Positions 28,530 through 55,659 are shown, numbered from the stretch's first letter. The stretch is DNA of 64,000 nt from Verrucomicrobiota bacterium (GCA_028343615.1 JAOLZA010000004.1:8697-72696), one strand, 5' to 3'. Translations and numbers: made by a program. Notes: a model not told the origin generated them from the sequence alone.

Positions 28530-28899
28530 ATTTTCCCGCAAAGATATCCCGCTTGCCCAATTTGCTCCGGAGCACTGAGGTTGAGGGTGAATCTGGATTC
28601 TCAATTAAACCCAGATGGCTAGTGTGTGCGTTTTTTAAATAAAACAGAGCACACAAATGGCACTAATCCTCAAGACACAGTTTGCTCTTCCTGTATACAT
28701 TTAGATAGACTTAGAGCCTTCCTATGATAAGCTTGTCTGTTTCTCTGTGAGCACCCCTGTAAACTCTTGAAGGCTTACGGGTTTGCCGTATTAGATTATC
28801 GATTGGGGATGAGCAGATTCTTTTGGGAAAGAAAGGCTCAGATGCCGACAGAGATTTACTCAACCACTCCCGCCTCTTGGATATGATTGTAGTTTCCTG

Positions 28900-29625: not shown

Positions 29626-29899
29626 GGCAAATAATTCTATGCAAAAATACGAATCCAGATTTAAGTTAGGGCAAAATGGTATATATTCTCCAGAAAGAAC
29701 TTTTCTGCCAACAACTGGGATCAGGATCTTACGGTCCGGACAGATTCTATCTCACCATATTAGTTGATAAAAGGCTAGGGAGGATTTGTGCCGCATGCAA
29801 CTTTCAAACTTGGGCAAAGCGGTATTGGTGCGAGGGAGTTGTCGTTTCCCGAGCATACTCGGAAACCAAGCGGATCTAGTCGATATATCACCGGTCGCG

Positions 29900-35259: not shown

Positions 35260-35279
35260 GTGGCTTACAAGGCGGGCGC

Positions 35280-38344: not shown

Positions 38345-40075
38345 ATGATAAAACAACGAAAGAGTAGTTCGGGCAATTTTCTCCGGAGATTTGCTGTTTG
38401 TGCCATATTCTCCATGGGAATGGTGGGTTGTAAAAACGCGGCAGAACACCACGCGGCTGCCGACGAAGAGGTGTACGATATTCTTAAATTGCGCCATCAA
38501 CAACTATTTGGAGCGGAACAGGCATTCGCGGTGGAGACACCCTACTCCAAGCGCGCGCCGGGCGACATTCCTTCGGTGGAGATTATCCTAAACCGTTTTT
38601 CCGATGGCACCAATTTGCTAACGCTGCCTAAGGCGCTGGAGATGGCGGTGAATCACAGTCGCGATTACCAGCTCCAGCGCGAGACGTTGTATCTCTCCGC
38701 GCTGTCACTCACCGGCGAGCGGCACAAATTCGCGCTCAAACCCACCAAGGCCAATCTCGACCTCAGCCGCAACCGCTCCAGTAGTAACGTCAACACCACC
38801 GAATCCGACGCCACCCTGACTCTCAGCAAAGCGCTCAAGACTGGCGGCACGCTCACGGCCACGCTTGCCAACGACCTCACGCTCTTTTTCAATGGCGGCG
38901 GCCCCAAGATTCCGGACCTCACCCTCGCGCTCACGCAGCCGTTGCTAAAAGATGCCGGCGCGAAGTTTGCCGAGGAATTGCTGACGCAATCCGAGCGCGA
39001 TCTTGTGTATGCTATCCGTACCTTTTCGCGTTATCAAAAAACTTTTCTGGTCGACCGCATTTCCGAGTATCTAGCACTCTTGCAAAAAAAGGATGAGGTG
39101 CGTGTCCAATATGAATTGTACCAAAACCGAATCCTGTTCCGGAAGGAACAGGAGCTGCGTCTTCAGGGTGAACTGATTAGTCAATTCGAGCTGGATCAGG
39201 CACTGCGGCAGGAATATTCCTCGAAGGTAAGTTACATTAACGCCATAGAATCGTATCAGGCCTTGCTGGATGATTTCAAGAAACAACTCAACTTGCCACT
39301 GGGCGAATCGGTGGTACTGGACGATGCTGAACTGGGCAACTTTAAGCAATTTGGCCTGCAACCGGTGCCTTTGAATGACAAGCATGGTTTCCAGCTCGCA
39401 CTAACCAATCGGTTGGATATTTTGAATAACATCGACAAATTCGAAGATAAGAAACGCAAAGTGGAGGTTTCCGCCAACGACCTGTTACCCAGTCTTGCTG
39501 TCGTGGCGGATTACTCCCTCAAAGATCAGTTTTACAATCGCAACTCTTTCGACTTCGGCGATTACTCTGGTAAGATTGGCCTCTCGCTAGATTTGCCGCT
39601 GGATAAACACACCGAGCGCAACGCCTACCGCAAGAGTCGTATTACCTTCGAGCAACAGTTACGCAGTTTGATGAAGACACTCGATGACTTGCGCGATGAG
39701 ATTCGTACTAATGTACGTACACTGGATCAGAACCAGCAATCGTACGTGATCAACCAGAAAGCACTTGCAGTATCCAGGCGTGAACTTGAGAAGGCGAAGC
39801 TGGATATGCTGGCTGGTGGCAACGTTTCCCCTCGTGACATTCTCGAAGCGCAGACTGCTGTGGCCAAGGCGCAGAATGATGTTACAAAATCCTTCATAAA
39901 TTTCCATACCCAGCGCCTAAAGCTACTCAACAACACCGGCATTCTCAACACCGGCTTGAATCAGTTTTGGGTGCAACCACAACCCGTGCCGGGCGTGGCG
40001 ACAGGGGTGCCTCTTCCACCGGGCGCGGAGCAAGATGTGCCGGTGCTGCCGCCGGCACAAATTTTAGGCAATTAA
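38345..40075 (+). CDS. TolC-family outer-membrane efflux lipoprotein (copy 1)
   Basis: Lipobox FSMGMVGC. The two-repeat coiled-coil/beta-barrel pattern (LALTQPLLKDAG...; GLSLDLPLD...) is typical of the OEP family. The start is set at ATG 38345. Confidence 0.8.
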   Translation: MIKQRKSSSGNFLRRFAVCAIFSMGMVGCKNAAEHHAAADEEVYDILKLRHQQLFGAEQAFAVETPYSKRAPGDIPSVEIILNRFSDGTNLLTLPKALEMAVNHSRDYQLQRETLYLSALSLTGERHKFALKPTKANLDLSRNRSSSNVNTTESDATLTLSKALKTGGTLTATLANDLTLFFNGGGPKIPDLTLALTQPLLKDAGAKFAEELLTQSERDLVYAIRTFSRYQKTFLVDRISEYLALLQKKDEVRVQYELYQNRILFRKEQELRLQGELISQFELDQALRQEYSSKVSYINAIESYQALLDDFKKQLNLPLGESVVLDDAELGNFKQFGLQPVPLNDKHGFQLALTNRLDILNNIDKFEDKKRKVEVSANDLLPSLAVVADYSLKDQFYNRNSFDFGDYSGKIGLSLDLPLDKHTERNAYRKSRITFEQQLRSLMKTLDDLRDEIRTNVRTLDQNQQSYVINQKALAVSRRELEKAKLDMLAGGNVSPRDILEAQTAVAKAQNDVTKSFINFHTQRLKLLNNTGILNTGLNQFWVQPQPVPGVATGVPLPPGAEQDVPVLPPAQILGN

Positions 40076-40094
40076 AATCGGACTCTAACTCATT

Positions 40095-42155
40095 ATGAAA
40101 AAAACAAATTTATTTCCAATCAGTGCCTTCGCAATGGTTGCAGTGGCTTTGGCCGGGTGTAATTATTTTTCCAGTGATGATGAAGTCTCCAGCACCTACG
40201 GCACGGAGAAAGTGGAGAACGAGCAATTCATCGTGTCCTTTTCCGAAGGCGGCGAACTAGTGTCGGTGAATGCGGTGAAGGTGGAAAATGAAATGGATGG
40301 CTCCGCTTCCATCGTGAGTATTGTGGACGAGGGCTCCTACGTGGAGGGGCCGCGTCAGGTTCAGGTGGAGCTCGGTGACACGCCTGCCAAACTGGCAGCA
40401 CGGCACAAGATTCCTGAGGCAGATCTGCGGAATATGAATCCCGCTCTGGAACAAGCGATCGCTAATAATGAGACAATTATGTTACCGGGAGATTTGTTGG
40501 TGGAACTGGATCCCGGCTCGTTAAAGGATAGAATTCTCAGCCAGGAAATCTCCGTGCGCACGTCGAAGAATTCCGTAATCAAATCACAGAACGATCTTGA
40601 GATTCAAAAGCTGAGGAATGAGCAGAACATTGATGACGCGAAAATTTCCCTGAACTTTGCCAATCTGGATTTGAAGAAATTCAAGAACAGTGACGCCCGC
40701 CTCACGCGCGAGGATTACGCGGGGCAGCTTTCCAACCTCTCCAACAAGGTATCCATCTCCGAGGCCAAGCTGGTTTATTTGAGGGAACTGGAGAAGAAAC
40801 AATTCCTTTCTAAAATGTCCCTGCGCGAGGAAGAGCAAAAGGTTTCGGAGTTCCGTCACAACATCCGGATGCTACGCGGTGAAAGCGATGCCTATGAAAA
40901 ATATGTGTATCCAAAATCCGAGCAAGATTATAATTCCAAAATCAAACAGGCCGAGCTTTCGCTGACTACTGTGGAGCAAACTGCCACCAATAATATGATC
41001 ACCGCTACTGAGGAGGTGGATACACAAAAGCAGAAACTTCAGCTTGAGGAAGAAAAACTCACCGAGGTTAAGGATCAAATGAACAAAAGCCGCATTTACG
41101 CGCCCTCCAGCGGGTTGGTGGTCTATCACGTCGGCGAATCCTCACGCTACGGCGGCTCCTCCGGCATCATCGAGAAAGGCACCACTCTGCGCAAGGGGCA
41201 GGATATCATTCACCTGCCGGATCTTTCCAAAATGAAAGTGCAGCTCAAAATTCACGAGAGTCGCATCAATCAAGTGAAGCCCGGCTTGCAGGTGCAGATC
41301 CGTATCGACACCATTTCCGATCGCACCTTTCGCGGTGAGATCACCTTTGTCGCCCCTGTGGCTGCTGCTGCCGAGCGTTGGGGTAGCGACAAAAAGGTTT
41401 TTAAATGCGAGGTCGCTATCAAAGATAAACTGCCATCGTATATCCGCCCTGGCGCCTCTGCTACTTGTCGCATCTTTGTGGCCAACCTGCCGAAGGTCCG
41501 AACGGTGGAAGGTGAACAAATCAAAACCCTGCGGGTGCCCATCCAGAGCGTGGTCACCACCGTCGAAGGCCGGCGTGTGTGTTTCAAGATGAATAAAAAA
41601 AACCAGCCCATCCCCGTGCCGGTGGAGACGGGCTATTACGACCAAACTCACATCCAAATCACCAAAGGTTTGGCCCTTGGTGAAGTCATCCTCAAAGCCC
41701 CCCTGCTCCACGCCAAAGAGCTGAACGTCGGCGGCGGCCTCTTTGGCTACCGGCAAATCAATGCCGATGATTTCTTCGCGGATTTACCCGAGACCATCGA
41801 GCCCGCCAAGCCTGTGGAGCCTCAACCCAGCATCGCCCAAAAGGCACCGCCCACCAAAGGGGGGCAAGGCAAGGGGCGGCCGGGCGGAGGTTCTGGACGT
41901 TCTACAGAGCCCCCTGCAGAACTCAATCTTTCCGCCGAGCAAAAAACCCAGTGGGCTGCGGCCGCTAAGAAAATGGCCGACAAAATGACAGACATTCGCG
42001 CTCGCCAAGCATGGACTGAGATGCGCACTTTGCGTGATGGATTCAAGGCAGATCTCGGGAAGTTTCTCACCAAGGATCAGCTTGCCAAATACGATGAGCT
42101 CAATGCCCAACGTGCTGGTGGAAGTGGCGGCAATCGCCCGGGTGGCGGAGGTTAA
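40095..42155 (+). CDS. HlyD/MacA-type periplasmic adaptor lipoprotein with a LysM-like insertion and a C-terminal G/P-rich plus LTxxQ tail (adaptor 1)
   Basis: Lipobox VALAGC. The lipoyl half-motifs IVSIVDEGSYVEGP ... PGDLLVELDP are split by VQVELGDTPAKLAARHKIPEADLRNMNP...IMLP. A long coiled coil and beta-barrel follow (RIYAPSSGLVVY). The tail contains LSAEQ and LTKDQ. Confidence 0.8.
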   Translation: MKKTNLFPISAFAMVAVALAGCNYFSSDDEVSSTYGTEKVENEQFIVSFSEGGELVSVNAVKVENEMDGSASIVSIVDEGSYVEGPRQVQVELGDTPAKLAARHKIPEADLRNMNPALEQAIANNETIMLPGDLLVELDPGSLKDRILSQEISVRTSKNSVIKSQNDLEIQKLRNEQNIDDAKISLNFANLDLKKFKNSDARLTREDYAGQLSNLSNKVSISEAKLVYLRELEKKQFLSKMSLREEEQKVSEFRHNIRMLRGESDAYEKYVYPKSEQDYNSKIKQAELSLTTVEQTATNNMITATEEVDTQKQKLQLEEEKLTEVKDQMNKSRIYAPSSGLVVYHVGESSRYGGSSGIIEKGTTLRKGQDIIHLPDLSKMKVQLKIHESRINQVKPGLQVQIRIDTISDRTFRGEITFVAPVAAAAERWGSDKKVFKCEVAIKDKLPSYIRPGASATCRIFVANLPKVRTVEGEQIKTLRVPIQSVVTTVEGRRVCFKMNKKNQPIPVPVETGYYDQTHIQITKGLALGEVILKAPLLHAKELNVGGGLFGYRQINADDFFADLPETIEPAKPVEPQPSIAQKAPPTKGGQGKGRPGGGSGRSTEPPAELNLSAEQKTQWAAAAKKMADKMTDIRARQAWTEMRTLRDGFKADLGKFLTKDQLAKYDELNAQRAGGSGGNRPGGGG

Positions 42156-42191
42156 GGTCGCGGCGGTAATTAATTTTCAAGCGTTTCGAAT

Positions 42192-42908
42192 ATGGAAACA
42201 AATCTAAACGGCAACGGTACGTCTATCATTCGCATTGAGGGAATGAAAAAGATATATGATCTTGGCGAGGTAAAGGTACCCGCATTAGCAGGGGTGGATA
42301 TCAACATTAAGGAGGGCAGCTACGTTGCTATCATGGGCCCCTCTGGCTCCGGTAAATCCACGCTGCTAAATTTGCTCGGTTGCCTCGATCGGCCCACCTC
42401 CGGCCGGTATTTCCTGGGCGAACAGGATGTGTCCCTCATGAGCGATAGCGCTCTGTCCGAAGTGCGCGGTCAACGCATCGGATTTATCTTCCAGTCATAT
42501 AACCTCATTCCGCAGCTGGATGTGGTGGAAAACATTCATGTGCCACTTTTTTATCAGGGCAAACAACTCTCCGCTCATCGTGAGCATTGCGAGGATCTGG
42601 CGCGGCTGGTGGGTCTGGCTGACCGGCTCGATCACCGCCCGCTGCAACTTTCTGGTGGTCAACAGCAGCGCGTTGCCGTGGCACGGTCGTTGGTGAATGA
42701 TCCATTAATGATCCTCGCCGATGAACCCACTGGCAATCTCGATTCCAAAACCGGCCTGGAAATCCTCGCACTGCTAGACAAGCTGCATGCCGATGGCAAG
42801 ACCATCGTTGTGGTGACGCACGATGAGGAAGTGGCGGAACGCGCGGATCGGGTAATTCGGCTCAAGGACGGTCTAGTGGATCGCGACGAACCCAATCCAC
42901 GTAAATGA
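42192..42908 (+). CDS. ABC transporter ATP-binding protein, MacB-NBD/LolD type (the only NBD gene in the cluster)
   Basis: [45 protein letters not shown]. Confidence 0.9.
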
Positions 42909-42909
42909 T

Positions 42910-44691
42910 ATGGGCTTCTTCCGCGCCATTATTCAAGGCATCAAGAGCCTCATGCTCTACCCGCTTCGCTCGATGCTCACTATGCTGGGCATCATCTTTG
43001 GTGTGTGCTCAGTGATTGCGATGCTTGCCATTGGCGAGGGCCAAAAACAAAAGGCAGAGGAGGAAATTAAAAAACTCGGTGCTATCAACATCATCATTAC
43101 CAGCCAAAAACCCATTGCGCAGGAAGTGCAGGGCCAGCGCACGGGGTTTGTGGCCAAGTACGGTGTGAAGTATGACGACGCTGCGCGCATTGCCGACCTG
43201 CGCGATGCCGGCGTGATCCGCGTGTTGCCCGAAAAAATTCGACGTGAGGACGTGGCCTTCGATCAGTTTGTGAAAAAGGACCGCGCAATTTACGGTACGA
43301 CTCCGTACTTTTTAGAATTCAGCCAAGCCGAAGTGGTGATGGGGCGTTTCATCAGCGAGGAGGACGAGATGACCAAGAACAATGTGTGTGTGATCTCAAC
43401 TACGTTGGCCTCGGAATTGTTTGCGTACCAAAATCCGCTTACCAATGAAATTAAAGTCGGGAAATATTATTACCGCGTGGTGGGCCTTGTGCGCACTCCG
43501 GCGGATTTATTGCGTGATTTCAAGGAGCAAAAACAACGCGTGCTTGACGAAGCCGTATTACGTGAAGCCGCGGCGCGGCTGGAGGAGAGCTTGGCGGCGC
43601 AGAATAAAATCATCAATCAGCGTCGGGAAAAGTTAAAGACCGGCACCGCCAAGGAACGCATGGTGGGCGAGGTAATTGAGCGCGAGCATCTCATTGAAAA
43701 CTCGGATATTTTGAAGCTCAACAAATTGCCCCCAATCGTTTTTCAGGAACGATTGGAAAATCAGGACACGCCGGAATCCAAATGGTTTTCCGACCAATCC
43801 GGCAAGGAATTTTTCGTGACGCCCGAAAACTGGGTGTACTCTTATGAAGGCAACAAAGCCGAGCTGGCTGGCCATCTCGGCCACGGGCGCGTTATGCGGA
43901 TGGCGATGGAGGCGGATATGGGCAATCAGGAAAGCAACCTCGGTAAGGCTAACGAATTTTATGGCGACGTGTACGTGCCTTTCCACACGTTGAGGCAGGA
44001 TTATGGTGATCGTGAATTTAAGCGGCAATCCGGTGGTATCTCAGCCAAGGAGGTGCAGATCGATCGGCTGCGTGTACAATTCGATCGGATGAATCATGTG
44101 ATCCCCGGTGCTAAAATGCTTGAACGTACAATGCGATACGGGCATCAGGATGTTCAAGACTTCGTCATCCGTGTGCCGCTTGATGAGCTAGCCACCGCGC
44201 GCAAAATTAACCTCATCTTCACCATCGTGCTTGCGGCTATCGCTTCCATCTCGCTGTTGGTCGGCGGTATTGGTATTATGAATATTATGCTTGCGACTGT
44301 CACCGAGCGTACCAGCGAGATTGGCGTGCGCCGCGCGTTGGGTGCCAAGAAGCTGCATATCATCCGCCAATTCCTCGTGGAAACCAGCGTGCTCTCTATA
44401 GCTGGAGGTATATTGGGTATCGCGGTGGGCTATGTATTCCCCAAATTGGCACAGAAGATTCTAAGTTCAAATGAGACTCTAAGTTGGCTAAGTGATAAAA
44501 TCCGGCAGATTACGTTTGGCATATTAGATTACGATTTTACAAAATTTAGCTACAATTTGGAGCTCGTCTTTACAAACTGGTCTGTGGCGTTGGCCTTTGG
44601 CCTTTCAGTATGTGTGGGCATCATCTTTGGCATTTACCCCGCCTATCGTGCTGCGAACCTCGACCCCATCGAAGCGCTGCGGCATTCTTAA
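42910..44691 (+). CDS. MacB/FtsX-type ABC permease with an enlarged periplasmic domain (permease 1, 593 aa)
   Basis: TM1 [26 protein letters not shown]. FtsX core [31 protein letters not shown] and C-terminal DPIEALRHS. It is about 160 aa longer than the three paralogues. Confidence 0.85.
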
Positions 44692-44789
44692 TGCCGGTGT
44701 TCCGATTCGCTCAGGAGCATCATTATTTTGTAACGCGGATGACATTCCTGCTGTAATAAGTGATAGCGAAGCATTGTGTGCAAATTTTA

Positions 44790-44818
44790 TTGAAAAGAAC
44801 TGGGGGTTTTTATACAAT
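44790..44818 (+). promoter_or_regulatory. Candidate sigma70-type internal promoter for the second efflux module
   Basis: TTGAAA-17 nt-TACAAT in the AT-rich 193-bp gap between permease 1 and adaptor 2, about 66 nt upstream of ATG 44885. Confidence 0.4.
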
Positions 44819-44884
44819 GTAAACAGTTTCCGTTGGGATGAAGACAGGGCATCGAGGCATACGTCCGAATTGCAAATTGAGCTA

Positions 44885-47026
44885 ATGACCATGAAAAAAC
44901 AAAATCAAACGACCGTAGACCAGAAGGGGTTTGCCATGGGAAAGTTACTCGGATTGTTAGCCTTGCTTGGATTGGTGGTCGGAGGCGTTTGGGGTGTTAA
45001 GCATTTGCTTTCCAAGGAAGAAGAGAAGGTCCGTCAGGAAAAGTACTGGACCGCTGAGAAGGCCGATTTTTTGGTGACAGTGAAACTCACGGGCAGGCTG
45101 GCTTCCACGGATGTGGTGGAACTCAAGTGCCAGCTAGAAGGGAGCACAACGATCGAATCGATTGTGGACGAAGGCGTCGAGGTCAAAGGTCCATTCAGGT
45201 ATATTATCAAGGCAGGTGATACACTTGCGTCAATTGCCGAATACATGGGTAGAGATGATCTTTCCATCCGCCTGCTTAATTCAGTAGAAGATATTGATTG
45301 GGGTAATTTGCCCGAAGGTCAGTCGATCATGATTCCCGGCGACCTACTGGTGGAACTGGATCCGCTCAATCTCAAGGAGCGGATTAACCAGATGGAGATC
45401 GTGGTGGAAAAGTCCGAGAATTCGCTCTTACGAATGACTGGAAACCTGAAAAACACCGAGCTCGCGGCGGCCTTCTCCTTAAAAGTCGCGGAAAATAATC
45501 ACAAGCTGGCAATCATGGCGCAGGACAAGGCCATAAACAGTACCATCAAAAACCAAATCAAGTCTGATATGGGAAGTATTACCAATCTTGCCAACCAAGT
45601 GGAGGAATCCAAAGAACAGATGGCAATCTCAGAAGCCAAGCTTAAGTGGCTCAAGGAGTTGGAGGAGAAAAAATTCCTTTCCAAGATGTCTTTGCGTGAG
45701 GAAGAACTGAAATTGATCAGGGAGCGGAATAATGCCCAGAATCTTCGCCACCAAATCGCGATGGCTCAAGAGCGGCTGGATGCCTACCAGAAATATGATA
45801 GTGTATCTATTCTGAACCAAAGTGAATTGGCTGTTGATGAGGCCTTGGTCTCCATTGAGAAGGTAAAGGTAAGGAATGTTGCTGACTTGAGGGATGCCAA
45901 TTCAACCATTGCCACCCAGAAGAAGACCTTTGAACTGGAAAAGGAAAGACTCGAAGATCTTAAGGAGCAAATGGCGGCCACAAGGATTTATGCGCCTTCA
46001 GATGGCACTGTTGTCTATTTTTCGGAAAGCTATAAGGAATACGGACCCATCATGGATGGGGCTCGAGTGCACCGAGGCCGCAACCTCATCAAGCTTCCCA
46101 AGACCAAGTCTCTGAAAGTAGAACTCAATGTTCCGCAAGCCAAACGAGGGCTTCTCAGGCGCGACATGAAAGCTTGGGTGCAGGTGGAGGATGTGACTCT
46201 GCCAGGAACCCTCTCGGTACTCGGGAGTACGGTTGATACCAATCGTCGTGGTCACACCGAAAAATCATATTTTAAAGGCGAAGTGTATATCGATAACAAT
46301 GATTTTCCCGATGCAGTTTCTGAAGGTATGACTGTTACCGTGGAGATCAAGGTCATCAATCTTGAGGGCGAAAACCAGCGGATCAAGGTCCCCAACCAAT
46401 GCGTGACAACCCGGATGATCAGTGAAGATACCGCACAGACTGGCTGCTATGTGTTGGATCCCGCCACCAAGAAACATAAGTGGCGACCGGTGACCATTGA
46501 ATACAGCGATGAAAACTTTATCGCGATCAAGGAAGAAACAGATCCAAGATTTGGCCTTCGAGAAGGTGAATTGATCCACTTGTCACCGTTGACTGAAGCA
46601 GAGAACCTAAACTTGGAGGAGGCAGTCATGGACAAAGGGATAGTTGAGTTGGGGGATCCAGGCAGCGTGGAAGCTTTGAATGTAAAAGGGAGAAATAGCG
46701 AACCTGTGGATTTTGGGTTGAGTGATGAGCAGCGGAAAGAGTGGGATGCGGCACAAGCCGAGGCCACAAGCGGAATTGCGGAGGTGATCAAGAAAATTCA
46801 GTCAAGGGAGATACCGCAAGAGAATGCCGTTTCAGTATTGAGTGAAACTTTTGAAGGTTCCCGTGCAAAGCTTGAGGGATTTCTTACTGAAGATCAGTTG
46901 AAGAAGTATGATGTATGGATTATTCCCGCCAAACAGGCTGCCGGCGAGAGGGTAAAACGTTTTCTTTCAACAAAATCTTCATTAGGGAAGTCGGTTAGCG
47001 GTAAGCAACGGCGTAATCGTAAATAG
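44885..47026 (+). CDS. HlyD/MacA-type adaptor with an N-terminal TM anchor, a LysM-like insertion and an LTxxQ tail (adaptor 2)
   Basis: The start is set at MTMKKQ (ATG 44885). The ORF-track extension to 44597 overlaps the previous gene. Anchor LLGLLALLGLVVGGVWGV. Insertion YIIKAGDTLASIAEYMGRDDLSIRLLNS...GQSIMIPGDLLVELDP. Tail has LSDEQ and LTEDQ. Confidence 0.8.
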   Translation: MTMKKQNQTTVDQKGFAMGKLLGLLALLGLVVGGVWGVKHLLSKEEEKVRQEKYWTAEKADFLVTVKLTGRLASTDVVELKCQLEGSTTIESIVDEGVEVKGPFRYIIKAGDTLASIAEYMGRDDLSIRLLNSVEDIDWGNLPEGQSIMIPGDLLVELDPLNLKERINQMEIVVEKSENSLLRMTGNLKNTELAAAFSLKVAENNHKLAIMAQDKAINSTIKNQIKSDMGSITNLANQVEESKEQMAISEAKLKWLKELEEKKFLSKMSLREEELKLIRERNNAQNLRHQIAMAQERLDAYQKYDSVSILNQSELAVDEALVSIEKVKVRNVADLRDANSTIATQKKTFELEKERLEDLKEQMAATRIYAPSDGTVVYFSESYKEYGPIMDGARVHRGRNLIKLPKTKSLKVELNVPQAKRGLLRRDMKAWVQVEDVTLPGTLSVLGSTVDTNRRGHTEKSYFKGEVYIDNNDFPDAVSEGMTVTVEIKVINLEGENQRIKVPNQCVTTRMISEDTAQTGCYVLDPATKKHKWRPVTIEYSDENFIAIKEETDPRFGLREGELIHLSPLTEAENLNLEEAVMDKGIVELGDPGSVEALNVKGRNSEPVDFGLSDEQRKEWDAAQAEATSGIAEVIKKIQSREIPQENAVSVLSETFEGSRAKLEGFLTEDQLKKYDVWIIPAKQAAGERVKRFLSTKSSLGKSVSGKQRRNRK

Positions 47027-47028
47027 CC

Positions 47029-48330
47029 GTGTTTGGGTTTTACATCCTTCGCATCGTTCAGGTGGGCTTCAAAAGCTTAAGGCTTCACAAGTTGCGGAGT
47101 GGTCTCACTATGCTGGGCATTGTCATTGGTGTGTGGGCCGTTATCACACTGGTCGCCATCGGTGAAGGGGCAAGCCATGACGCGCAGGAGGCGATCAAGG
47201 CACTGGGCGCGAATAACGTCATTATTCGTAGCGTAAAGCCTTTGTCAGACAAGCTCCAACTGCAGGGGAGAATGCAGTGGGAGACGATCTACGGCCTGAA
47301 AAATTCAGACGCAGGGCGGATTCTAAAAACAGTGCCGGGAGTTAAGCGTGTGTTGCCTATCCTGAGCCAGCGCAAGAATGTGGTACACGGCAAACGAAAT
47401 GTAGATTGCCAACTCATTGGCACCTTCCCTCACTACCCTGGATTCACCCAGTCCCGTATCGTTGCCGGTCAATTTCTAAATGAGATGGAGGAGGCTCGAA
47501 AAGAAAACTCCTGCGTCCTCACACTAGAGTTGGCTGAGAAGCTGTTCGCGGGCCAAAATCCACTCCTGGAAAATGTGATTGTTCGCGGTGTTGAATCTGC
47601 GCAGGTCTTCCGGGTAAAGGGTATTTTACAAGAGCGCGTGGATACCGAGAAACTGCCGCAGATGGCAGACGCAATGGGGCGAACGATTTCTGCCAATGTG
47701 TACATCCCTTTGTCTACCTTTAAAGCCCTTTACGGAATCAAGAATATTGATCTTAGCGTTGGCAGCGTTTCTGTGGAGCGCGTGGAGCTTACCGAGATTC
47801 GGGTTGAATTCGGATCGGTTGAAGAGGTGATCCCTGCGTTGCCGCTTCTCAGGGATTGCCTTGATAAATCACGCAAAGGCGAGGTGGATTACGAGATTGT
47901 GGTTCCCATTAAAGAGCTCAACACCCTCAAGGCGCAAAAAGCGCGTGATACCCGTATGCTTCTATACATCGCCTGTATCTCACTGTTGGTCGGTGGAATT
48001 GGCATTATGAATATCATGCTGGCCACCGTCACCGAGCGCACTCAGGAGATTGGTATCCGTCGGGCACTGGGGGCGACCCAGACGGACATTACCGTACAGT
48101 TCATGGTTGAGGCGCTGATGCTCTGCCTGATTGGGGGCACTATTGGGGTGGTGGGCGGTTGGGCGTTTGCCGCGTTCCGGCACAACATTTTACATATAAC
48201 GACCATAGTTACTGAATGGTCGGTAGTCATCGCTTTTGGTTTGTCCGTTGTAGTCGGGTTATTTTTCGGCATTTGGCCGGCTATCAAGGCTGCTGCATTG
48301 GATCCCATAGAAGCCCTGCGGCATAATTAG
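47029..48330 (+). CDS. MacB/FtsX-type ABC permease (permease 2)
   Basis: GTG start 3 nt after the adaptor stop. Motifs: [66 protein letters not shown]. Confidence 0.85.
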   Translation: MFGFYILRIVQVGFKSLRLHKLRSGLTMLGIVIGVWAVITLVAIGEGASHDAQEAIKALGANNVIIRSVKPLSDKLQLQGRMQWETIYGLKNSDAGRILKTVPGVKRVLPILSQRKNVVHGKRNVDCQLIGTFPHYPGFTQSRIVAGQFLNEMEEARKENSCVLTLELAEKLFAGQNPLLENVIVRGVESAQVFRVKGILQERVDTEKLPQMADAMGRTISANVYIPLSTFKALYGIKNIDLSVGSVSVERVELTEIRVEFGSVEEVIPALPLLRDCLDKSRKGEVDYEIVVPIKELNTLKAQKARDTRMLLYIACISLLVGGIGIMNIMLATVTERTQEIGIRRALGATQTDITVQFMVEALMLCLIGGTIGVVGGWAFAAFRHNILHITTIVTEWSVVIAFGLSVVVGLFFGIWPAIKAAALDPIEALRHN

Positions 48331-48436
48331 TCTATTATGGTAACAGAGGTGAAAAGATTGCCCCCAAAGAATCGTAAAATGTAATATTAAAGCTCCTCAT
48401 GCTGTAAGAATGGGAGCGAATTCACAGTTTTAAGTT

Positions 48437-49750
48437 ATGCTTGGTTTATCCATTCTACGCATCATTCAAGTTGGCTTCAAAGGACTTCGGCTGCACAAAC
48501 TGCGTAGCGGTCTGACGATGCTTGGAATGATCATTGGTGTGTGGGCGGTTATCACTCTGGTCGCCATAGGGGAAGGGGCCAGCCATGATGCGCAGGAGGC
48601 GATCAAGGCACTGGGCGCGCAAAATGTTATCATTCGAAGTATTAGGCCCCCCTCAATGAATGCCCAAATGCAGGGGGATTGGGAGAGTTTCTTTCGTCGG
48701 TGGATGGCGATCTATGGGCTCAAGAACACGGATGCAACTCGCATAAAAGAAACTGTGCCGGGAGTGAAACGCGTATTACCCATTTTGAATAAGCGCCTGA
48801 ATGTCGTGCATGGTCGCCGCGAAGTGGATTGTCAACTCATCGGCACCTATCCCTATTACCCGGAATTCACACAATCCAAAATTATCGCTGGGCAATTCTT
48901 GAATGAGGCCGAGGAAAACAGCAAGGCTTCCTCCTGTGTGGTTTCTCTGGAACTGGCGCAGAGACTATTCTCCGGACACAATCCACTCATGGAAAAGGTG
49001 ATTGTGCGAGGCTATGAATCTTCGCAGGTTTTTCAGGTTAAGGGTATTTTGGAGGAGCGCACTGATACTGAGAAATTGCCGCAATTGCCCGATGCTATGG
49101 GCCAGACAATTGCCGCCAACGTGTATATTCCTTTATCTACTTTTAAGTCGTTGTTCGGCGTTAAGAATGTTGACCGCAGTGTGGGCAATCTTAAATTGGA
49201 GAGTGTGGAACTGTCGGAGATTCGCGTGGAGTTCGACTCTGTTGAGCAGGTGATTCCGTCATTGCCGATGCTCATTGAAGCTTTGCAGACTGGGCGTGCT
49301 GAGAGGGATTTCGAGATTGTCGTTCCTATTAAGGAGCTCAACACTCTCAAAGCGCAAAAGGCGCGAGACACCCGCATGCTTCTTTACATCGCTTGCATCT
49401 CGCTATTGGTGGGCGGTATAGGCATAATGAACATCATGCTGGCCACCGTCACCGAGCGCACACAGGAGATTGGTATCCGTCGGGCACTGGGAGCCAAGCG
49501 GACGGACATAACCGTACAGTTTTTGGTGGAAGCCCTGATACTTTGTCTAATTGGCGGTTCCATCGGTGTTTTAGGTGGCTTAGCCTTTGCCGCATTCCGG
49601 CATAACATTCTACACACAACGACCATCATTACTGAATGGTCGGTACTTATCGCTTTCGGCTTATCGGTGGCGGTGGGGCTGACCTTCGGCCTTTGGCCAG
49701 CAATCAAGGCGGCCTCACTCGATCCCATTGAAGCTCTGCGGCACACGTAG
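48437..49750 (+). CDS. MacB/FtsX-type ABC permease (permease 3), a tandem paralogue of permease 2
   Basis: Long runs identical to permease 2, for example [47 protein letters not shown]-terminus is DPIEALRHT. Confidence 0.85.
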   Translation: MLGLSILRIIQVGFKGLRLHKLRSGLTMLGMIIGVWAVITLVAIGEGASHDAQEAIKALGAQNVIIRSIRPPSMNAQMQGDWESFFRRWMAIYGLKNTDATRIKETVPGVKRVLPILNKRLNVVHGRREVDCQLIGTYPYYPEFTQSKIIAGQFLNEAEENSKASSCVVSLELAQRLFSGHNPLMEKVIVRGYESSQVFQVKGILEERTDTEKLPQLPDAMGQTIAANVYIPLSTFKSLFGVKNVDRSVGNLKLESVELSEIRVEFDSVEQVIPSLPMLIEALQTGRAERDFEIVVPIKELNTLKAQKARDTRMLLYIACISLLVGGIGIMNIMLATVTERTQEIGIRRALGAKRTDITVQFLVEALILCLIGGSIGVLGGLAFAAFRHNILHTTTIITEWSVLIAFGLSVAVGLTFGLWPAIKAASLDPIEALRHT

Positions 49751-49814
49751 ATCTGCCTTGATACATAAAATACCGATTAAAACCAACGGGCGTGCGTCCA
49801 ACTTGCCCCTAAAT

Positions 49815-51515
49815 ATGATGATGAATTATTCCTTTAAACTTCTTGGCATTCTTTTGTTGGTCGCGGTGTTGCTAGCCGGCTGCGAAGCGGCCAAGTTCCG
49901 TGACGCTGCTGATGACGAAGTGTATGGCATTTTGAAACAAAGAGGTAGCGACGTATTGGGTGCGGAGCAGGATTACGATATCCGTACCGTGTGGAGCGGT
50001 CGCGCGCCGGATGCTATTCCGCCGGTGGATATTATCAACGACCGCTTCCGCGATCAAACCAGTGTACTTACCCTTGAGTCCGCGCTAGGTATGGCCATTA
50101 CTAACAATCGCGCGTATCAGTTGCAAAAAGAGACCCTTTATCTTTCCGCATTGTCGCTCACCGGAACGCGGCATAAATTTGTGTGGCAGCCTACAAAGAG
50201 CACGGCGGACCTCGGCATTGGCCGTGACTCAAGCAAGGGCCTTAAGGGCGATTCCGATCTCGATTTGACCTTCAGTAAACTTTTCAAAACTGGTGGCACG
50301 CTTACTGCCACTTTGGCGAACGACTTGGTACTGTATTTCAATGGCAAACCGAAGGTTCCGGACATCACCCTCAAACTTACCCAACCGTTGTTGCGTGGAG
50401 CGGGGCGCGCCATCGCTGAGGAAGTGCTCACACAGGCGGAGCGCGATGTGGTTTATGCAGTTCGCGATTTCAGCCATTACCAAAAGACGTTTGCGATTGA
50501 AACGGTGTCCGAGTATTTCCGTATCCTTCAGAAAAAGGATTCAGTGAGGAACAGTTATAGCAATTATCAAAACCTGCAGGGCGCGCGCGCGCGCGCGGAG
50601 GCGATGGTGGATGCGCAGCGGTTGCCGAAGTACCAAGTGGATCAGGCGCGTCAAAAAGAACTTTCTTCCCGCGTAAAATATCTTGCTGCTGTGGAGAGCT
50701 ATCGCGCGGCATTGGATACCTTCAAGCAACGGCTCGCTTTGCCGCTGGGCGCGGATCTCAAGCTTGACGAAACCGCTCTCCGCGTACTTGTGCAGACGGG
50801 ACTAACCCCGTTGGAGTTAAACGCCCGCAATGGCTACCTCATTGCGGTGACAAACCGATTGGACCTTCTCAACCGAATCGACCAGTATGAGGATTCGCAG
50901 CGTAAAGTGCGGGTGTCGGCGGATAATCTACAACCGAGCCTAAACCTAGTAGTGGATGCTTCGTTGACAGAACAGTTCTACAGCTCCTTTTCGCCGGAAA
51001 ATTTTTCCGCAAACGTGGGCCTGCAGCTGGGTTTGCCGCTGGATAAATTGACGGAACGTAACGCCTATCGCACCAGCCTCATCAGCTTTGAAAAGCAACT
51101 CCGCGCCCTCGCCTCGGAACTTGACGAATTACGGGAAGACATACGCCAAGGTATCCGGCAACTTGCTCAAGAACATGAAAACTATTTTATCCAACAAAAC
51201 GCCCTCGCCCTCGCTCAACAGCGGGTAAATGTTATGCCGCTGTTGCTTGATGCGAATCAGGCAGACATCCGCGACCAACTCGAAGCTCAAGCCGACCTTG
51301 TAAGTGCACAGAATGCTGTGACCGGAGCAATGGTTAACTATCATGTGGCACGTTGGAATTTATTGAAGGACCTAGGCGTTATGCGCGTCGAAACTGGTCA
51401 GTTTTGGCTGGGAAATCAGCCTTTACTTGGAGTAGCCGCACCGGTTATCCCAAGTGCCTCGGGGCAGTTGCCTAACGTAGTTACGCCTGGGCAGGTGTTC
51501 GGAGAACAGAAATAG
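49815..51515 (+). CDS. TolC-family outer-membrane efflux lipoprotein (copy 2)
   Basis: The start is set at MMMNYSFKLLGILLLVAVLLAGC (lipobox). It is collinear with TolC copy 1 (for example TLTATLANDL, LTQPLL, GLQLGLPLDKLTERNAYR). Confidence 0.8.
   Translation: MMMNYSFKLLGILLLVAVLLAGCEAAKFRDAADDEVYGILKQRGSDVLGAEQDYDIRTVWSGRAPDAIPPVDIINDRFRDQTSVLTLESALGMAITNNRAYQLQKETLYLSALSLTGTRHKFVWQPTKSTADLGIGRDSSKGLKGDSDLDLTFSKLFKTGGTLTATLANDLVLYFNGKPKVPDITLKLTQPLLRGAGRAIAEEVLTQAERDVVYAVRDFSHYQKTFAIETVSEYFRILQKKDSVRNSYSNYQNLQGARARAEAMVDAQRLPKYQVDQARQKELSSRVKYLAAVESYRAALDTFKQRLALPLGADLKLDETALRVLVQTGLTPLELNARNGYLIAVTNRLDLLNRIDQYEDSQRKVRVSADNLQPSLNLVVDASLTEQFYSSFSPENFSANVGLQLGLPLDKLTERNAYRTSLISFEKQLRALASELDELREDIRQGIRQLAQEHENYFIQQNALALAQQRVNVMPLLLDANQADIRDQLEAQADLVSAQNAVTGAMVNYHVARWNLLKDLGVMRVETGQFWLGNQPLLGVAAPVIPSASGQLPNVVTPGQVFGEQK
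50581..50597. repeat. (GC)8 dinucleotide microsatellite inside the TolC-2 coding sequence
   Basis: gcgcgcgcgcgcgcgcg is read directly from the sequence and encodes GARARAEA in frame. Confidence 0.9.
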
Positions 51516-51519
51516 AAAA

Positions 51520-53229
51520 ATGGCCAAAGCCAAGGCATTCATTCAGAAGCATCCGGCGTGGACCACGGTGATCATCGTGATGCTCGCCAGCGTGTTCATG
51601 GGCGCTAAATGGCTGGAACCCACAAGCGGGTCCGCAGTCGTCATGCAGTTCGCAACTGCCCAACGGGGGGGCTTGCGCGTTACGGTAACCGAAGGGGGGT
51701 CACTCGATTCCACACGCAAGGTCAGCCTACGCTGTGAACTTGATGGTGGCGGGACCATCGTGGAGTTGGTGAATGAGGGAGCCTATGCGAAAGGTCCGCG
51801 TGAACACCAGGCTGAGGTAAGCGACACATTGCAAACTCTCACCGAAACCTATCGGTCTCTTGCTCAGCCTCCAAGCGGAAAAGAACCACCGACTCCGCTC
51901 CAAATAAAGGCACTGGAGGAATCCATTCGACGGATCAACCCCGAAGTGGATTGGGATAACTTGAACCTCGGCCAAACAATTCTTTTGCCGGGCGATCTAT
52001 TGGTGAAGTTTGAGGACGGTTTATTACGTGAGCGGATTTTTAGCCAAACCAAATCCGTGGAGGATGCCGAGCGGGACTTGGGAAATTCCGAAAAAGATTT
52101 GGCGCTGCGCAAGATTGAAACTGCTGAGGTGAATCGGCAGGCAGAACTTGATGTGGAATTCGCCGAACAGGATTTAGCAAAATACATTGAAGGTACCGCC
52201 CCGCTGGCCAAGTTGGCGTTAAAGGGCGATATTGATATTGCGGAGGAGGAAATCAAGCGCGCTGAAGACCGGCTGGTGAGCACGAAAAAACTCCGCACCA
52301 AAGGCTACGCCACCGACCTTGAGGTGCAAGCTGATGAGCTAACCATTCAAAAACAGAACAACCTCATCACCAAATATCGCAAACAAATGGACTTGCTAGA
52401 GCGGTTTGACATTCCACAAATGACTAAGCGATACCAGTCCAAGTTAGCCCAAGTGCGCGTGAGTGAGAAGCGCATGATCGAGAAGTCCCGGACCATCGTC
52501 GAAAGTCAAACCGAGACGGTCGACCGGCGCAAAGCCGGGCTTCAGGCCCAGCGCGATAAGTTGGAATTGTATCAGGTTCAACTCATTAAGACTGAAATGC
52601 GCGCTCCGCAGGATGGCCTCGTGATTTTCGCCCGCAGTTCCTCGCGCTACAGCGAATCCTATATCAAGCTTGGTGCGGATATTCGCAAGGGCTACAATGT
52701 TATCGATTTGCCGGACGTTAGCGAGCTGATGGCGGTGGTCCAGGTGCATGAATCGTATGTGCGTCACTTGCACAATGACCTCAAGGCGATTGTGAAGATT
52801 GATTCATTGCCGGAACAAGAATTTGACGGTGTCGTCCGATTGGTGGCCCCCACTCCCGATCAGCGCCGTCGGTACTATGAGAATATTTCAGTATACGACA
52901 CGCATGTTTGGATTGAGGATGAGCAAAATCAATTGCCCCCGGATCTCAAGCCGGGGGTTTCTGCGCGCGCAGAAATTGTCATTGCTGAGCTGACAGATGT
53001 ACTCAAGATCCCCGTACAATGTGTTACCACTCTTCGCGGACAAAAGGTGGTTCAGATCAAACGCGGTGATTCAGTGGAGACGGTGTCCGTAGAAACCGGG
53101 CAATTCAACGAACGTTTCATAGAAATTCGAGAAGGGCTCACGGCGGGGGATCAAGTTTCGCTGTCACCGAAAATCGAAGAGCCTTCCAACTTGACCAAAG
53201 GCAAAACGCAAGCCGCGGTCGGGCGCTGA
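51520..53229 (+). CDS. HlyD/MacA-type adaptor with a TM anchor and a longer, degenerate LysM-like insertion; no LTxxQ tail (adaptor 3)
   Basis: Anchor WTTVIIVMLASVFMG. IVELVNEGAYAKGP ... LPGDLLVKF flank the insertion AEVSDTLQTLTETYRSL...INPEVDWDNLNLGQTILLP. Beta-barrel motif MRAPQDGLVIF. Confidence 0.8.
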   Translation: MAKAKAFIQKHPAWTTVIIVMLASVFMGAKWLEPTSGSAVVMQFATAQRGGLRVTVTEGGSLDSTRKVSLRCELDGGGTIVELVNEGAYAKGPREHQAEVSDTLQTLTETYRSLAQPPSGKEPPTPLQIKALEESIRRINPEVDWDNLNLGQTILLPGDLLVKFEDGLLRERIFSQTKSVEDAERDLGNSEKDLALRKIETAEVNRQAELDVEFAEQDLAKYIEGTAPLAKLALKGDIDIAEEEIKRAEDRLVSTKKLRTKGYATDLEVQADELTIQKQNNLITKYRKQMDLLERFDIPQMTKRYQSKLAQVRVSEKRMIEKSRTIVESQTETVDRRKAGLQAQRDKLELYQVQLIKTEMRAPQDGLVIFARSSSRYSESYIKLGADIRKGYNVIDLPDVSELMAVVQVHESYVRHLHNDLKAIVKIDSLPEQEFDGVVRLVAPTPDQRRRYYENISVYDTHVWIEDEQNQLPPDLKPGVSARAEIVIAELTDVLKIPVQCVTTLRGQKVVQIKRGDSVETVSVETGQFNERFIEIREGLTAGDQVSLSPKIEEPSNLTKGKTQAAVGR

Positions 53230-53243
53230 TCCGACCGCATCCG

Positions 53244-54533
53244 TTGCGCATGAACCTTTCCCTCGTTCGAGTCATTCACCTGGGCATCAAGAGTCTGATG
53301 CTACACAAAATGCGTTCACTGCTTACGATGCTGGGTATTATCTTCGGCGTGTGTTCGGTGATTGCGATGCTTGCTATTGGTGAAGGTGCCAGCCATGAGG
53401 CGCAGGAAGCCATCCGTGCGCTCGGCAGTCGCAATGTTATCATACGTAGTGTACCGCCGCCCAAGGGGCAGTCTACCGCCGACACCGTGCAAACCTATAC
53501 TGCAAATTATGGCCTCAAACTTTCGGATGTGCAGTTGCTGGAAGAAACTCTGCACCCGCGTATCACAGCCACACTTGCCAAACGGCGCTATCGCATGAGT
53601 GTGCGAGTCGGGCGTGTGGAAGTATCTGGCACCGTGTGGGGAACACAACCCAATCACCTGCGGATGAGCCAAATGGAATTGCTTGCGGGGCGGTTCCTGT
53701 ATGTCACCGATGCGCATGCCAACGTGTGCGTGATCACTGATTCCATGGCCACCCGGCTTTTTCCTGTTTCCGATCCGCTTCACGGCGAAGTAAAGCTGAA
53801 TAACCGGCAGGTATTTCGCGTGGTGGGTGTGGTGCGTGAAACCGCCGCGGCCAGCGCACGCGCACCGGGGCAGGACAATATCGGCCGCGCGTTGGATGCC
53901 AATGTGTACATCCCTCTTGCCGCTGCGCATTCGCGCCTAGGCGTGCTGTTCACCGAACGTTCCACCGGTGGCTCCCAGCGCGAGCGGGTGGAACTGCATG
54001 AACTGGTTGTTGAATTGGCCGATGTGAATCACGTGGAGGCCACCGTGCCAGCTATCCGCGCCGCATTAAAAACAGCGCACAAAAAAATTGATTATGAAAT
54101 CATCGTCCCATTAGAGTTGCTGCGACAAGCGGAAGAAACTAAGCGCATATTCAACATCGTCCTCGGCTCCATCGCCGGCATTAGCCTCATCGTCGGTGGC
54201 ATTGGCATTATGAATATCATGCTCGCCACCGTCACCGAGCGTACGCGTGAGATCGGCATTCGTCGCGCGCTCGGTGCACAAAAGAGCCAGATCATCACGC
54301 AGTTCTTGGTGGAGACCGTCGTGCTCTCAATCGCCGGCGGTTTGGTGGGTGTAGTGCTTGGCGTAGCGTTGCCTATAGCAGTAGAACATTTTGCCGAAAT
54401 GAAAACCATCGTCACCCTTCCCGCCGTGCTGCTTGCCTTTGGTATCTCTGCCGTAGTGGGCGTGGTTTTCGGCGTGTACCCCGCCCGACGTGCCGCCAGC
54501 CTCGATCCCATTGAGGCCCTGAGGCACACCTAA
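53244..54533 (+). CDS. MacB/FtsX-type ABC permease (permease 4)
   Basis: [66 protein letters not shown]. The start is either TTG 53244 or ATG 53250. Confidence 0.85.
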   Translation: MRMNLSLVRVIHLGIKSLMLHKMRSLLTMLGIIFGVCSVIAMLAIGEGASHEAQEAIRALGSRNVIIRSVPPPKGQSTADTVQTYTANYGLKLSDVQLLEETLHPRITATLAKRRYRMSVRVGRVEVSGTVWGTQPNHLRMSQMELLAGRFLYVTDAHANVCVITDSMATRLFPVSDPLHGEVKLNNRQVFRVVGVVRETAAASARAPGQDNIGRALDANVYIPLAAAHSRLGVLFTERSTGGSQRERVELHELVVELADVNHVEATVPAIRAALKTAHKKIDYEIIVPLELLRQAEETKRIFNIVLGSIAGISLIVGGIGIMNIMLATVTERTREIGIRRALGAQKSQIITQFLVETVVLSIAGGLVGVVLGVALPIAVEHFAEMKTIVTLPAVLLAFGISAVVGVVFGVYPARRAASLDPIEALRHT

Positions 54534-55623: not shown

Positions 55624-55659
55624 GGCGGTCTCGCAAATGCGGGACCGCCTTTTTTATTT
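55624..55659 (+). terminator. Rho-independent terminator of the pseudopilin-like gene
   Basis: ggcggtctcgc / aaat / gcgggaccgcc forms an 11-bp stem (one G-U pair) with a 4-nt loop, followed by ttttttattt. Confidence 0.8.

Follow-up and report, generated by a model that had tools for sequence, protein, structure and literature searches.

Tandem MacAB-TolC-type modules with a single ATPase gene in a marine Verrucomicrobiota genome: a candidate case of motor sharing

MacB-type tripartite pumps are complexes of 2:6:3 composition that carry out ATP-driven export. The MacAB-TolC systems of Escherichia coli, Acinetobacter baumannii and Aggregatibacter actinomycetemcomitans (5nik, 5gko, 5lil) are close relatives of a ten-gene array found in a stretch of 64,000 nucleotides from a Verrucomicrobiota bacterium (GCA_028343615.1 JAOLZA010000004.1:8697-72696), hereafter the window. 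The array has the same permease fold, coupling helices, nucleotide-binding domain (NBD) subfamily, hexamer-type adaptor and TolC-family duct as MacAB-TolC, but departs from it in several respects: 1) the NBD is a separate polypeptide; 2) three modules are accompanied by one NBD gene; 3) the adaptors carry a LysM-like insert, hairpin helices of ~99 residues and C-terminal tails, and the first permease has an extra periplasmic subdomain. Judged by its predicted proteins, the array is a tandem of three paralogous MacAB-TolC-type (ATP-binding cassette, ABC, type VII) tripartite modules within the genome of a marine member of the Verrucomicrobiota. Module 1 comprises an outer-membrane factor (OMF), an adaptor, the NBD and a permease (OMF1-MFP1-NBD-P1), module 2 an adaptor and two permeases (MFP2-P2-P3), and module 3 a second OMF with an adaptor and a permease (OMF2-MFP3-P4). 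We put at roughly 0.55 the probability that the three pumps share one ATPase in trans, with dimers of the single NBD energising all of them. A preliminary description of this stretch had raised the idea that one ATPase services several pumps, and it fits the comparative pattern reported below, in which cognate NBDs are lost after modules come to lie side by side and coupling helices are conserved.

Other described systems share part of this layout. Spr0693-0694-0695 of Streptococcus pneumoniae (5xu1, among the top matches of both the NBD and the permeases) and YknXYZ likewise combine a separate NBD and permease with an adaptor; these Gram-positive systems differ in having no OMF and only one permease and one NBD each. 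In the tp0959-0972 operon of Treponema pallidum, the permeases TP0962 and TP0963 are inferred to heterodimerise on the NBD TP0964, alongside an adaptor, TP0965, plus four OMFs, TP0966-0969 (PMC8407342). This operon is equivalent to the OMF-MFP2-NBD-P2-P3 form that module 2 takes in relatives of the window, but has one adaptor, one transporter and no extra ATPase-less modules. In Anabaena, hgdBC encodes an adaptor and a permease with no ATPase gene, its mutant has a phenotype, and the authors suggest that DevA or some other ATPase is supplied in trans (PMC6161253). Sharing of an OMF is well known, HgdD alone being used by seven or more DevBCA paralogues (PMC8277102). Whilst hgdBC is unlinked to devBCA, the ATPase-less modules described here are contiguous with the ATPase-bearing one, and loss of the cognate NBD is recorded in comparative data. 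LolCDE offers a formal analogy for P2/P3, with two paralogous type VII permeases and one separate ATPase, but passes its cargo to LolA, with neither an adaptor nor an OMF, and several relatives of the window need P2 only.

ADOP proteins (TIGR03434) are internally duplicated and about 800 aa long, whereas each permease of the window is a single unit, 429-593 aa in length, and comes with an adaptor; with scores of 107-133 bits against a cut-off of 622, ADOP membership was rejected. In ADOP-like arrays, for example a 42-kb cluster of Psychroflexus torquis, clustered MacB_PCD/FtsX permeases outnumber ATPase genes (PMC3914696). The permutations accepted within the MacB superfamily include NBDs that are separate or fused and permeases that pair as homodimers or heterodimers (PMC5985334). 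A Verrucomicrobiota genome is noted for its many MacB homologues of 'complex' gene structure (PMC8636102), and ATPase sharing is established for importers, in FhuC and MsiK (PMC10147376). In the literature searched we found no direct description of NBD sharing in MacB-type exporters, nor of contiguous MacB-type modules with a single NBD and cognate NBD loss after juxtaposition. The stoichiometry had been thought undescribed: this holds for its exact form in the literature searched, but not for its ingredients (PMC6161253, PMC8407342, PMC3914696), and the locus is a variation on known MacAB-TolC-type pumps rather than a new system.

Within the window, calling of open reading frames (ORFs) gives ten on the plus strand spanning 38318-54533, the cluster itself being taken as 38345-54533 (Table 1). 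Pfam and NCBIfam identify two OEP/TolC proteins, three HlyD-family adaptors, four MacB_PCD+FtsX permeases, none of them with a fused NBD, and one stand-alone ABC_tran ATPase; tblastn with NBDs of three clades as queries found no NBD remnant inside the cluster. The preliminary description was therefore right about the 2:3:4:1 count, the gene order, the lack of fused NBDs and the lone ATPase gene, whilst its phrase 'tightly spaced' applies inside modules (1-36 nt) and not at the P1/MFP2, P2/P3 and P3/OMF2 boundaries (193, 106 and 64 nt). Identity between paralogues is 78% for P2 and P3, 45-46% for the other permease pairs, 51% for the two OMFs and 30-36% for the adaptors.

ATPase gene history in related loci

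Profile scans of species-representative genomes (MFP2 alignment) and of metagenomes (MFP3 alignment), plus two of three exact-protein look-ups, yielded 57 related Verrucomicrobiota loci, which were annotated by BLASTP against the window proteins. The NBDs form three clades that match the modules: NBD-1 with MFP1/P1, NBD-2 with MFP2/P2 and NBD-3 with MFP3/P4, with neighbour-joining bootstraps of 97/100 for NBD-1 and 100/100 for NBD-2. A census of adaptor junctions across the window and these loci found that MFP1 is always followed by an NBD (12/12) and never directly by a permease, that MFP2 is followed by an NBD at 18 junctions and directly by a permease at 21, and that the corresponding figures for MFP3 are 3 and 25. 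At junctions where other lineages have NBD-2 and NBD-3 genes, the window lineage has neither, and its two NBD-less junctions are clean, with 2 nt between MFP2 and P2 and 14 nt between MFP3 and P4. Exactly one NBD is present in eight of the nine fully bounded multi-module arrays (the window, L009, L013, L020, L023, L031, L036 and L049), the exception being L021 with two. In every case at this locus in which the upstream flank of an NBD-less module 2 can be seen, NBD-P1 lies directly before it or, in L021, an NBD-bearing module 2 does. Because NBD-less modules sit beside NBD-bearing ones and eight of nine bounded arrays hold one NBD, the pattern points to redundancy, in which a neighbouring NBD would make the cognate NBD dispensable.

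The combinations in which modules occur are diverse. Most Verrucomicrobiales loci have a variable array between msbA/Ser-Thr kinase genes on one side and xylose-isomerase-like/3-keto-disaccharide-hydrolase/ThuA genes on the other. Module 2 on its own has an NBD, in the order OMF-MFP2-NBD-P2-P3 (L015-17, L027, L028, L030), and an NBD is also present where module 3 is the only one in view (L055 and the more distant L034). Modules 2 and 3 occur together with one NBD (L020, L022, L023, L029, L031, L049) or with two (L025 and L054, downstream edge out of view), modules 1 and 2 with one (L019, L036), and modules 1 and 3 at a contig edge (L061). All three modules with a single P2 are found in L013, L042, L047 and L062, with one NBD where the junction is visible (L013, L042). 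The full window order, again with one NBD, recurs in L009, L039, L008 and L037+L038 (60-67% identity only), and in L010/L012 as far as the contig end. L009 is on CALKBX010000009.1, and L036 belongs to GCA_902566265.1. The 2:3:4:1 order, whose conservation in relatives had been proposed as a check, is conserved across several lineages, yet it represents one of many states taken by a highly plastic, recombination-prone locus and not a fixed design.

Traces of that recombination lie in a mosaic of nucleotide identities to the window. L013 and L019 are 79-88% identical to it in module 1 and 63-72% in module 2, with 75-83% in module 3 for L013, and L010/L012 show the reverse pattern, with 68-75% in module 1 and 81-86% across MFP2-P2. 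The mosaic switches sharply at ~44.7 kb, in the P1/MFP2 gap, and the mosaic region is listed at ~44700 and ~50000. Module 2 has a phylogenetic affinity unlike that of modules 1 and 3, which indicates that it has been exchanged between lineages by recombination, as a cassette without NBD and OMF; swapped independently of the NBD, it would have to function with any NBD and OMF that the recipient already has.

The surfaces through which an NBD would be engaged are retained. The major coupling helix after transmembrane helix 2 (TM2; TVTERTxEIGxRRALGA) and the minor coupling helix at the C-terminus (LDPIEALRH) occur in P1-P4 and in every orthologue, and both are essentially invariant across the four permease clades, whether or not a clade member has an NBD of its own (positions assigned by homology to MacB as in PMC5985334). 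The window paralogues are 76-88% identical to one another in the C-terminal minor helix and 67-77% in TM2 plus the major coupling helix, against 29-37% in the periplasmic domain; among P1, P2/P3 and P4, the TM3-TM4 and periplasmic regions are 29-47% identical. A Q-loop region of 24 residues (letters not shown) is common to the three NBD clades. Together these features show that P2, P3 and P4 would still dock to an NBD, and nothing in the interface appears to forbid cross-pairing. Convergence of P2/P3 on P1 after the loss of NBD-2 was also considered: P2/P3 of the window lineage have WPAIKAA, as opposed to YPARRAA elsewhere, and P1 has a hydrophobic residue there. WPAIKAA was rejected as adaptive evidence, since P2 of L013, L014 and L019 is also without NBD-2, yet keeps YPARRAA.

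The earlier worry that some paralogues might be decaying was rejected on ratios of nonsynonymous to synonymous substitution (dN/dS; pairwise NG86 against L009, L008 and L013) of 0.03-0.17 for all ten genes. The lowest value belongs to P2 (0.027), with ~0.05 for the NBD and 0.05-0.07 for P4. The ATPase-less ORFs are intact across lineages down to ~60% identity, and purifying selection on them is strong.

What powers the modules without an ATPase gene

Under the shared-ATPase reading, the single NBD would dimerise beneath each permease dimer: a P1 homodimer, a P2/P3 heterodimer (or homodimers of P2 and of P3) and a P4 homodimer. Each of these would operate by MacB-type mechanotransmission, joined to a hexameric adaptor of its own and to a channel of the TolC kind, the P1 dimer pairing with MFP1 and OMF1, the P2/P3 dimer with MFP2 and a borrowed channel (OMF1 or OMF2), and the P4 dimer with MFP3 and OMF2. 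Substrate range would be determined by the periplasmic domains; as these are the most diverged segments, each pump may handle a different substrate, making the array a substrate-diversified efflux or export battery on one motor. A bolder extension, which we advance only tentatively, is that the MacB-type ATPase is a generic, interchangeable motor beside which cassettes of adaptor and permease, some including a channel and some not, are gained, lost and swapped by recombination, redundant NBDs being purged once cassettes adjoin.

Several observations weigh against sharing. The view is limited to 64 kb of the genome, and a dedicated or generalist NBD may lie elsewhere; moreover, one NBD gene would need to supply six NBD copies for each set of one P1, one P2/P3 and one P4 dimer. 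L021, L025 and L054 retain two NBDs, so that NBD loss is not obligatory. The conserved motifs imply that an NBD is still needed but not which one, because the coupling-helix and Q-loop motifs are family-wide; the Q-loop/helical-subdomain region is, moreover, no more invariant than the NBD average (0.47 versus 0.47 invariant columns). The loci were gathered via adaptor homologues at one locus, so the sample is neither unbiased nor fully independent, and some contigs are probably from the same populations. Finally, a distal NBD can evidently serve ATPase-less modules, because some of these have none in view: L058 (3413-7918) and L059 (565-5124) hold an OMF-MFP-permease unit without NBD, 40-59% identical to module 3, with glutamine synthetase, aldehyde dehydrogenase and an unrelated opposite-strand gene as neighbours, and L011 (605-5970) holds an OMF-less MFP2-permease module. 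The L011 module, from the same metagenome-assembled genome (MAG) as L019, lies directly downstream of an extracytoplasmic function (ECF) sigma-like gene (605-1132) and a FecR-like anti-sigma ORF (1096-2484), both assigned by eye.

These orphan units (L058/L059, L011) lend weight to an account in which modules 2 and 3 are real pumps run by an NBD encoded elsewhere, whether MacB/LolD-type or generalist, and the cluster NBD serves P1 only. It also gains from the many MacB homologues of Verrucomicrobiota genomes (PMC8636102), from Anabaena hgdBC, thought to rely on an ATPase encoded outside its cluster (PMC6161253), and from a second type VII-like NBD within the window (9912-10589, minus strand), although the latter has only ~38% identity with the NBD of the cluster and shares sequence with a permease-like ORF of its own, which it overlaps. 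Against this, NBD loss at the locus correlates with a neighbouring NBD-bearing module, and lone modules keep their NBD (L055, L030, L015-17); we regard a distal supplier as possible, though rather unlikely. If modules 2 and 3 no longer used ATP at all, being remnants or repurposed scaffolds or sensors, their want of NBD genes and the split second permease of L016, L017 and L032 would be accounted for. Such a fate is highly improbable for ORFs that are intact at the dN/dS values given above, down to ~60% identity, and whose cytoplasmic NBD-docking helices are the best-conserved permease segments, which would be unexpected without an NBD partner.

Equally far-fetched is the other arrangement offered in the preliminary description, a mixing of the four permeases, beyond P2/P3, into one or two hetero-oligomeric machines on one NBD dimer. 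Heterodimerisation of type VII permeases has a precedent in LolCDE (PMC5985334), and TM2 and the coupling helices are alike among the paralogues, but each module has its own adaptor paralogue, module 2 has been swapped independently and TM3-TM4/periplasmic identity among P1, P2/P3 and P4 is just 29-47%; mixing across paralogues is also unlikely because relatives have the modules singly or in any pair (2 only, 3 only, 1+2, 1+3, 2+3). A further proposal concerns cargo rather than power: the array could be dedicated to envelope biogenesis with the upstream glycan/MsbA block, exporting glycolipid or (sulfated) polysaccharide in the manner of DevBCA-HgdD. In its favour, the window and most Verrucomicrobiales loci have msbA and glycosyltransferase genes on the upstream side, module 3 of L055 has msbA immediately next to it, and an island for 3'-phosphoadenosine 5'-phosphosulfate (PAPS) synthesis and sulfotransfer lies at 24-30 kb. 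It is nonetheless doubtful: a divergently oriented Ser/Thr kinase gene stands between the MsbA block and the array, Opitutales loci with the same module 2 (L015-17, L027-28) are without this neighbourhood, scores against the DevA and DevC models fall far short of the cut-offs, and variable modules with cassette exchange have the look of an accessory trait rather than core envelope. The lipopolysaccharide or glycolipid cargo first envisaged, for which adjacency was the sole argument, accordingly finds little favour here.

Identity and structure of the proteins

The preliminary description had called the array 'MacB/Lol-type', and only the first half of that label stands. The best NCBIfam matches of the NBD are the MacB NBD (2.2e-71), DarD and LolD, and its PDB matches are MJ0796, Spr0694, MacB and LolD. 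By Pfam, all four permeases have four TM helices with a large periplasmic domain between TM1 and TM2, and their hydropathy follows a 1+3 TM pattern. Foldseek places MacB (5lil/5gko/5nik) and Spr0695 (5xu1) at the top for the AlphaFold2 (AF2) model of P1, and MacB is both the best model and the best solved structure for the permeases. The three HlyD-family adaptors and two OEP proteins supply the MacB adaptor and TolC-family OMF, module 2 being without an OMF gene of its own. Absent are the fused NBD of E. coli MacB (equivalog PRK10535; permeases 137-199 bits against a cut-off of 966) and an NBD for each permease protomer encoded with the pump, as there is one NBD gene for four permease genes.

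Lol identity was rejected because the permeases fall far below the LolC/E thresholds (TIGR02212, 31.7-48.2 bits against 362; LolC and LolE exception models, ~20-31 bits against 439-540) and each module has an HlyD-family adaptor; in the PDB search, P4 matched no LolC/E chain at 1e-5. On homology, the permeases are thus best described as MacB-type and not Lol-type. DevA/DevC membership was rejected too (TIGR02982 DevA, 193 bits against 295.8; TIGR01185 DevC, 21 bits against 290).

P2 and P3 form sister clades (bootstraps 51/60 and 59/60, respectively), and as each clade spans Opitutales and Verrucomicrobiales loci, their tandem duplication is old. Both copies are usually retained, and the seven residues diagnostic of the two clades are all periplasmic. 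The pair is compatible with a heterodimer like LolC/LolE, as had been suggested, or like T. pallidum TP0962/TP0963; such a heterodimer is not obligatory, however, because several relatives keep P2 alone (at least eight loci: L013, L014, L019, L036, L042, L045, L047, L062), and in some lineages a homodimer would evidently suffice. P3 is split into two ORFs in L016 (14034-15008), L017 (9078-10514) and L032 (1113-2335), either because the tandem copy is truly decaying there or because the MAGs were misassembled.

In each of the three adaptors, the first lipoyl half is separated from the helical hairpin by a LysM-like insert of beta-alpha-alpha-beta layout (MFP1, aa ~85-140; MFP2, aa ~104-150 in 713-aa numbering), which is degenerate in MFP3. 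Pfam LysM scores are at or near threshold for MFP1 (20.9 bits, excised insert) and MFP2 (19.5 bits), with no match for MFP3; PF01476 is precomputed on many adaptor homologues, and the AF2 confidence score (pLDDT) over the insert is 84-91. The insert would place a peptidoglycan-binding type of module within an efflux adaptor. A literature search on LysM-bearing adaptors turned up adaptor reviews in which 'LysM' occurs 0 times, and no direct description of such adaptors was found in the literature searched.

MFP1 has a lipoprotein-type N-terminus (LAGC), a Gly/Pro-rich linker and a C-terminal helical tail with weak Pfam matches to LTXXQ/Metal_resist/DUF4890 (CpxP-like). Its C-terminal linker or tail appears to be hypervariable, because MFP1 length differs among contigs with an NBD identical to that of the window (691, 713 and 766 aa among L001-L006, against 686 aa in the window). 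Faint EF-hand matches occur in the MFP1 orthologues of L003, L036 and L037. For MFP2, whose start was reset to the ATG at 44885, rather than the ORF opening, by alignment to 713-aa homologues, the AF2 model predicts hairpin helices of ~99 residues each (163-261, 267-365), much longer than those of MacA or AcrA, and a disordered linker followed by a C-terminal three-helix bundle (614-694); its Foldseek matches are AcrA/MacA/EmrA.

The periplasmic domain of P1 is ~125 residues longer than those of P2-P4, owing to a non-homologous insert at ~aa 197-350 that is modelled by AF2 as a long helical hairpin (197-270) and a small beta subdomain (strands 276-322). Neither this insert nor the MFP2 tail has a Pfam match at or near the gathering cut-off. 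P1-type permeases of 567-593 aa make up ~50 clusters, of which the few with a named source are from Verrucomicrobiota. N-termini resembling lipoboxes are found in OMF1 (MVGC), OMF2 (LAGC) and, as noted, MFP1, whilst MFP2 and MFP3 begin with an N-terminal TM helix. The OMFs, at ~560-580 aa, are longer than E. coli TolC.

Genomic neighbourhood and wider significance

In the window, as in most Verrucomicrobiales loci, the array site is flanked by msbA/Ser-Thr-kinase genes on one side and xylose-isomerase-like/3-keto-disaccharide-hydrolase genes on the other. Homologues are annotated as Verrucomicrobiota, Verrucomicrobiales or Opitutales MAG proteins, mostly from marine metagenomes. An exact-match look-up led only to short metagenome contigs, and polar and other marine data sets include identical contigs. 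Two further NBDs lie in the window, an MsbA-like fused one and the stand-alone minus-strand one mentioned above. The latter belongs to the FtsE/MacB superfamily (best match FtsE, below cut-off), overlaps a 380-aa ORF with a weak MacB_PCD match and is part of an unusual combination in which a ZnuA-like binding protein adjoins (7872-10589).

The low-GC island upstream has a GC content of 0.40-0.43, compared with 0.51-0.60 in the surrounding DNA. Its genes specify a sulfotransferase, an adenosine 5'-phosphosulfate (APS) kinase, a 729-aa fusion of pyruvate-kinase-barrel, PUA and ATP-sulfurylase parts, a TauE-like exporter and a TylF-like methyltransferase, contents that suggest PAPS synthesis for a sulfated glycan within a polysaccharide gene block. 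Downstream, a prepilin-type N-methyl-domain gene follows the last permease in 11 loci (L009, L019, L023, L031, L036, L039, L040, L042, L043, L045, L046) and is absent in the others; its membership of the system is doubtful. After it comes the first strong plus-strand terminator-like hairpin downstream of the cluster, which is also the strongest such hairpin in the region. Promoters and terminators were scanned by consensus match, with counts (23 and 29) not far above those of shuffled sequence (16.3 and 21.9).

Table 1. Features of the array and its surroundings, in window coordinates.
Feature	Position	Strand	Evidence and remarks
ZnuA-like binding protein	7872..8828	-	
Permease-like ORF, 380 aa	8777..9919	-	weak MacB_PCD
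Stand-alone NBD	9912..10589	-	FtsE/MacB superfamily
Low-GC island	24000..30000		
MsbA-like protein, fused NBD	35256..37133		
OMF1, TolC-family outer-membrane factor	38345..40075	+	Pfam OEP 5.5e-13; TIGR01844 match below cut-off; ORF opens at TTG 38318, ATG 38345; lipobox-like motif near N-terminus
MFP1, module 1 periplasmic adaptor	40095..42155	+	HlyD_D23/HlyD_3 (Pfam), RND_mfp (NCBIfam)
NBD, clade NBD-1, sole ATPase gene of cluster	42192..42908	+	ABC_tran 2.9e-30; 238 aa
P1, MacB-type permease	42910..44691	+	MacB_PCD+FtsX
Gap between modules 1 and 2	44692..44884	+	193 nt; sigma-70-like site and recombination breakpoint
Sigma-70-like site, TTGAAA-17-TACAAT	44790..44818	+	10/12; consensus match only; best of region
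MFP2, module 2 adaptor, TM-anchored	44885..47026	+	HlyD_3
P2, MacB-type permease, module without NBD gene	47029..48330	+	MacB_PCD+FtsX
P3, MacB-type permease	48437..49750	+	MacB_PCD+FtsX
OMF2, module 3 TolC-family outer-membrane factor	49815..51515	+	OEP 4.5e-13; distinct OMF2 clade; ORF opens at TTG 49728, first ATG 49815; lipobox
MFP3, module 3 adaptor, TM-anchored	51520..53229	+	HlyD_D23/HlyD_3; RND_mfp 9.6e-23, MacA 1.4e-15
P4, MacB-type permease, module without NBD gene	53244..54533	+	MacB_PCD+FtsX; MacB PRK10535 1.1e-58; PDB MacB 5lil 4.4e-50
Prepilin-type N-methyl-domain gene, 317 aa	54651..55604	+	N_methyl 1.7e-08
Terminator-like hairpin	55624..55649	+	11-bp stem, 9 GC pairs, T-run; pattern match only

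Type VII ABC permeases without a recognisable ATPase are common, in ADOP arrays, in Anabaena hgdBC and among many paralogues of Bacteroidota and of the Planctomycetes-Verrucomicrobia-Chlamydiae (PVC) group. The 16-kb locus offers a compact natural test case for them, with one NBD, four permeases and three adaptors, plus a series of relatives with and without their own NBD. Should sharing not be demonstrated, it would simply be a well-conserved array of MacAB-TolC paralogues. If one NBD does drive several MacB-type pumps, the prediction of efflux from genomes would change, as counts of ATPases would under-count pumps, and the evolution of substrate range by cassette exchange would be explained. 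If the ATPase is indeed a generic motor, the array would be the first on record in which type VII ABC exporters share an NBD, across at least three structurally different pumps, and would hint at how many 'orphan' MacB/FtsX permeases obtain their power.

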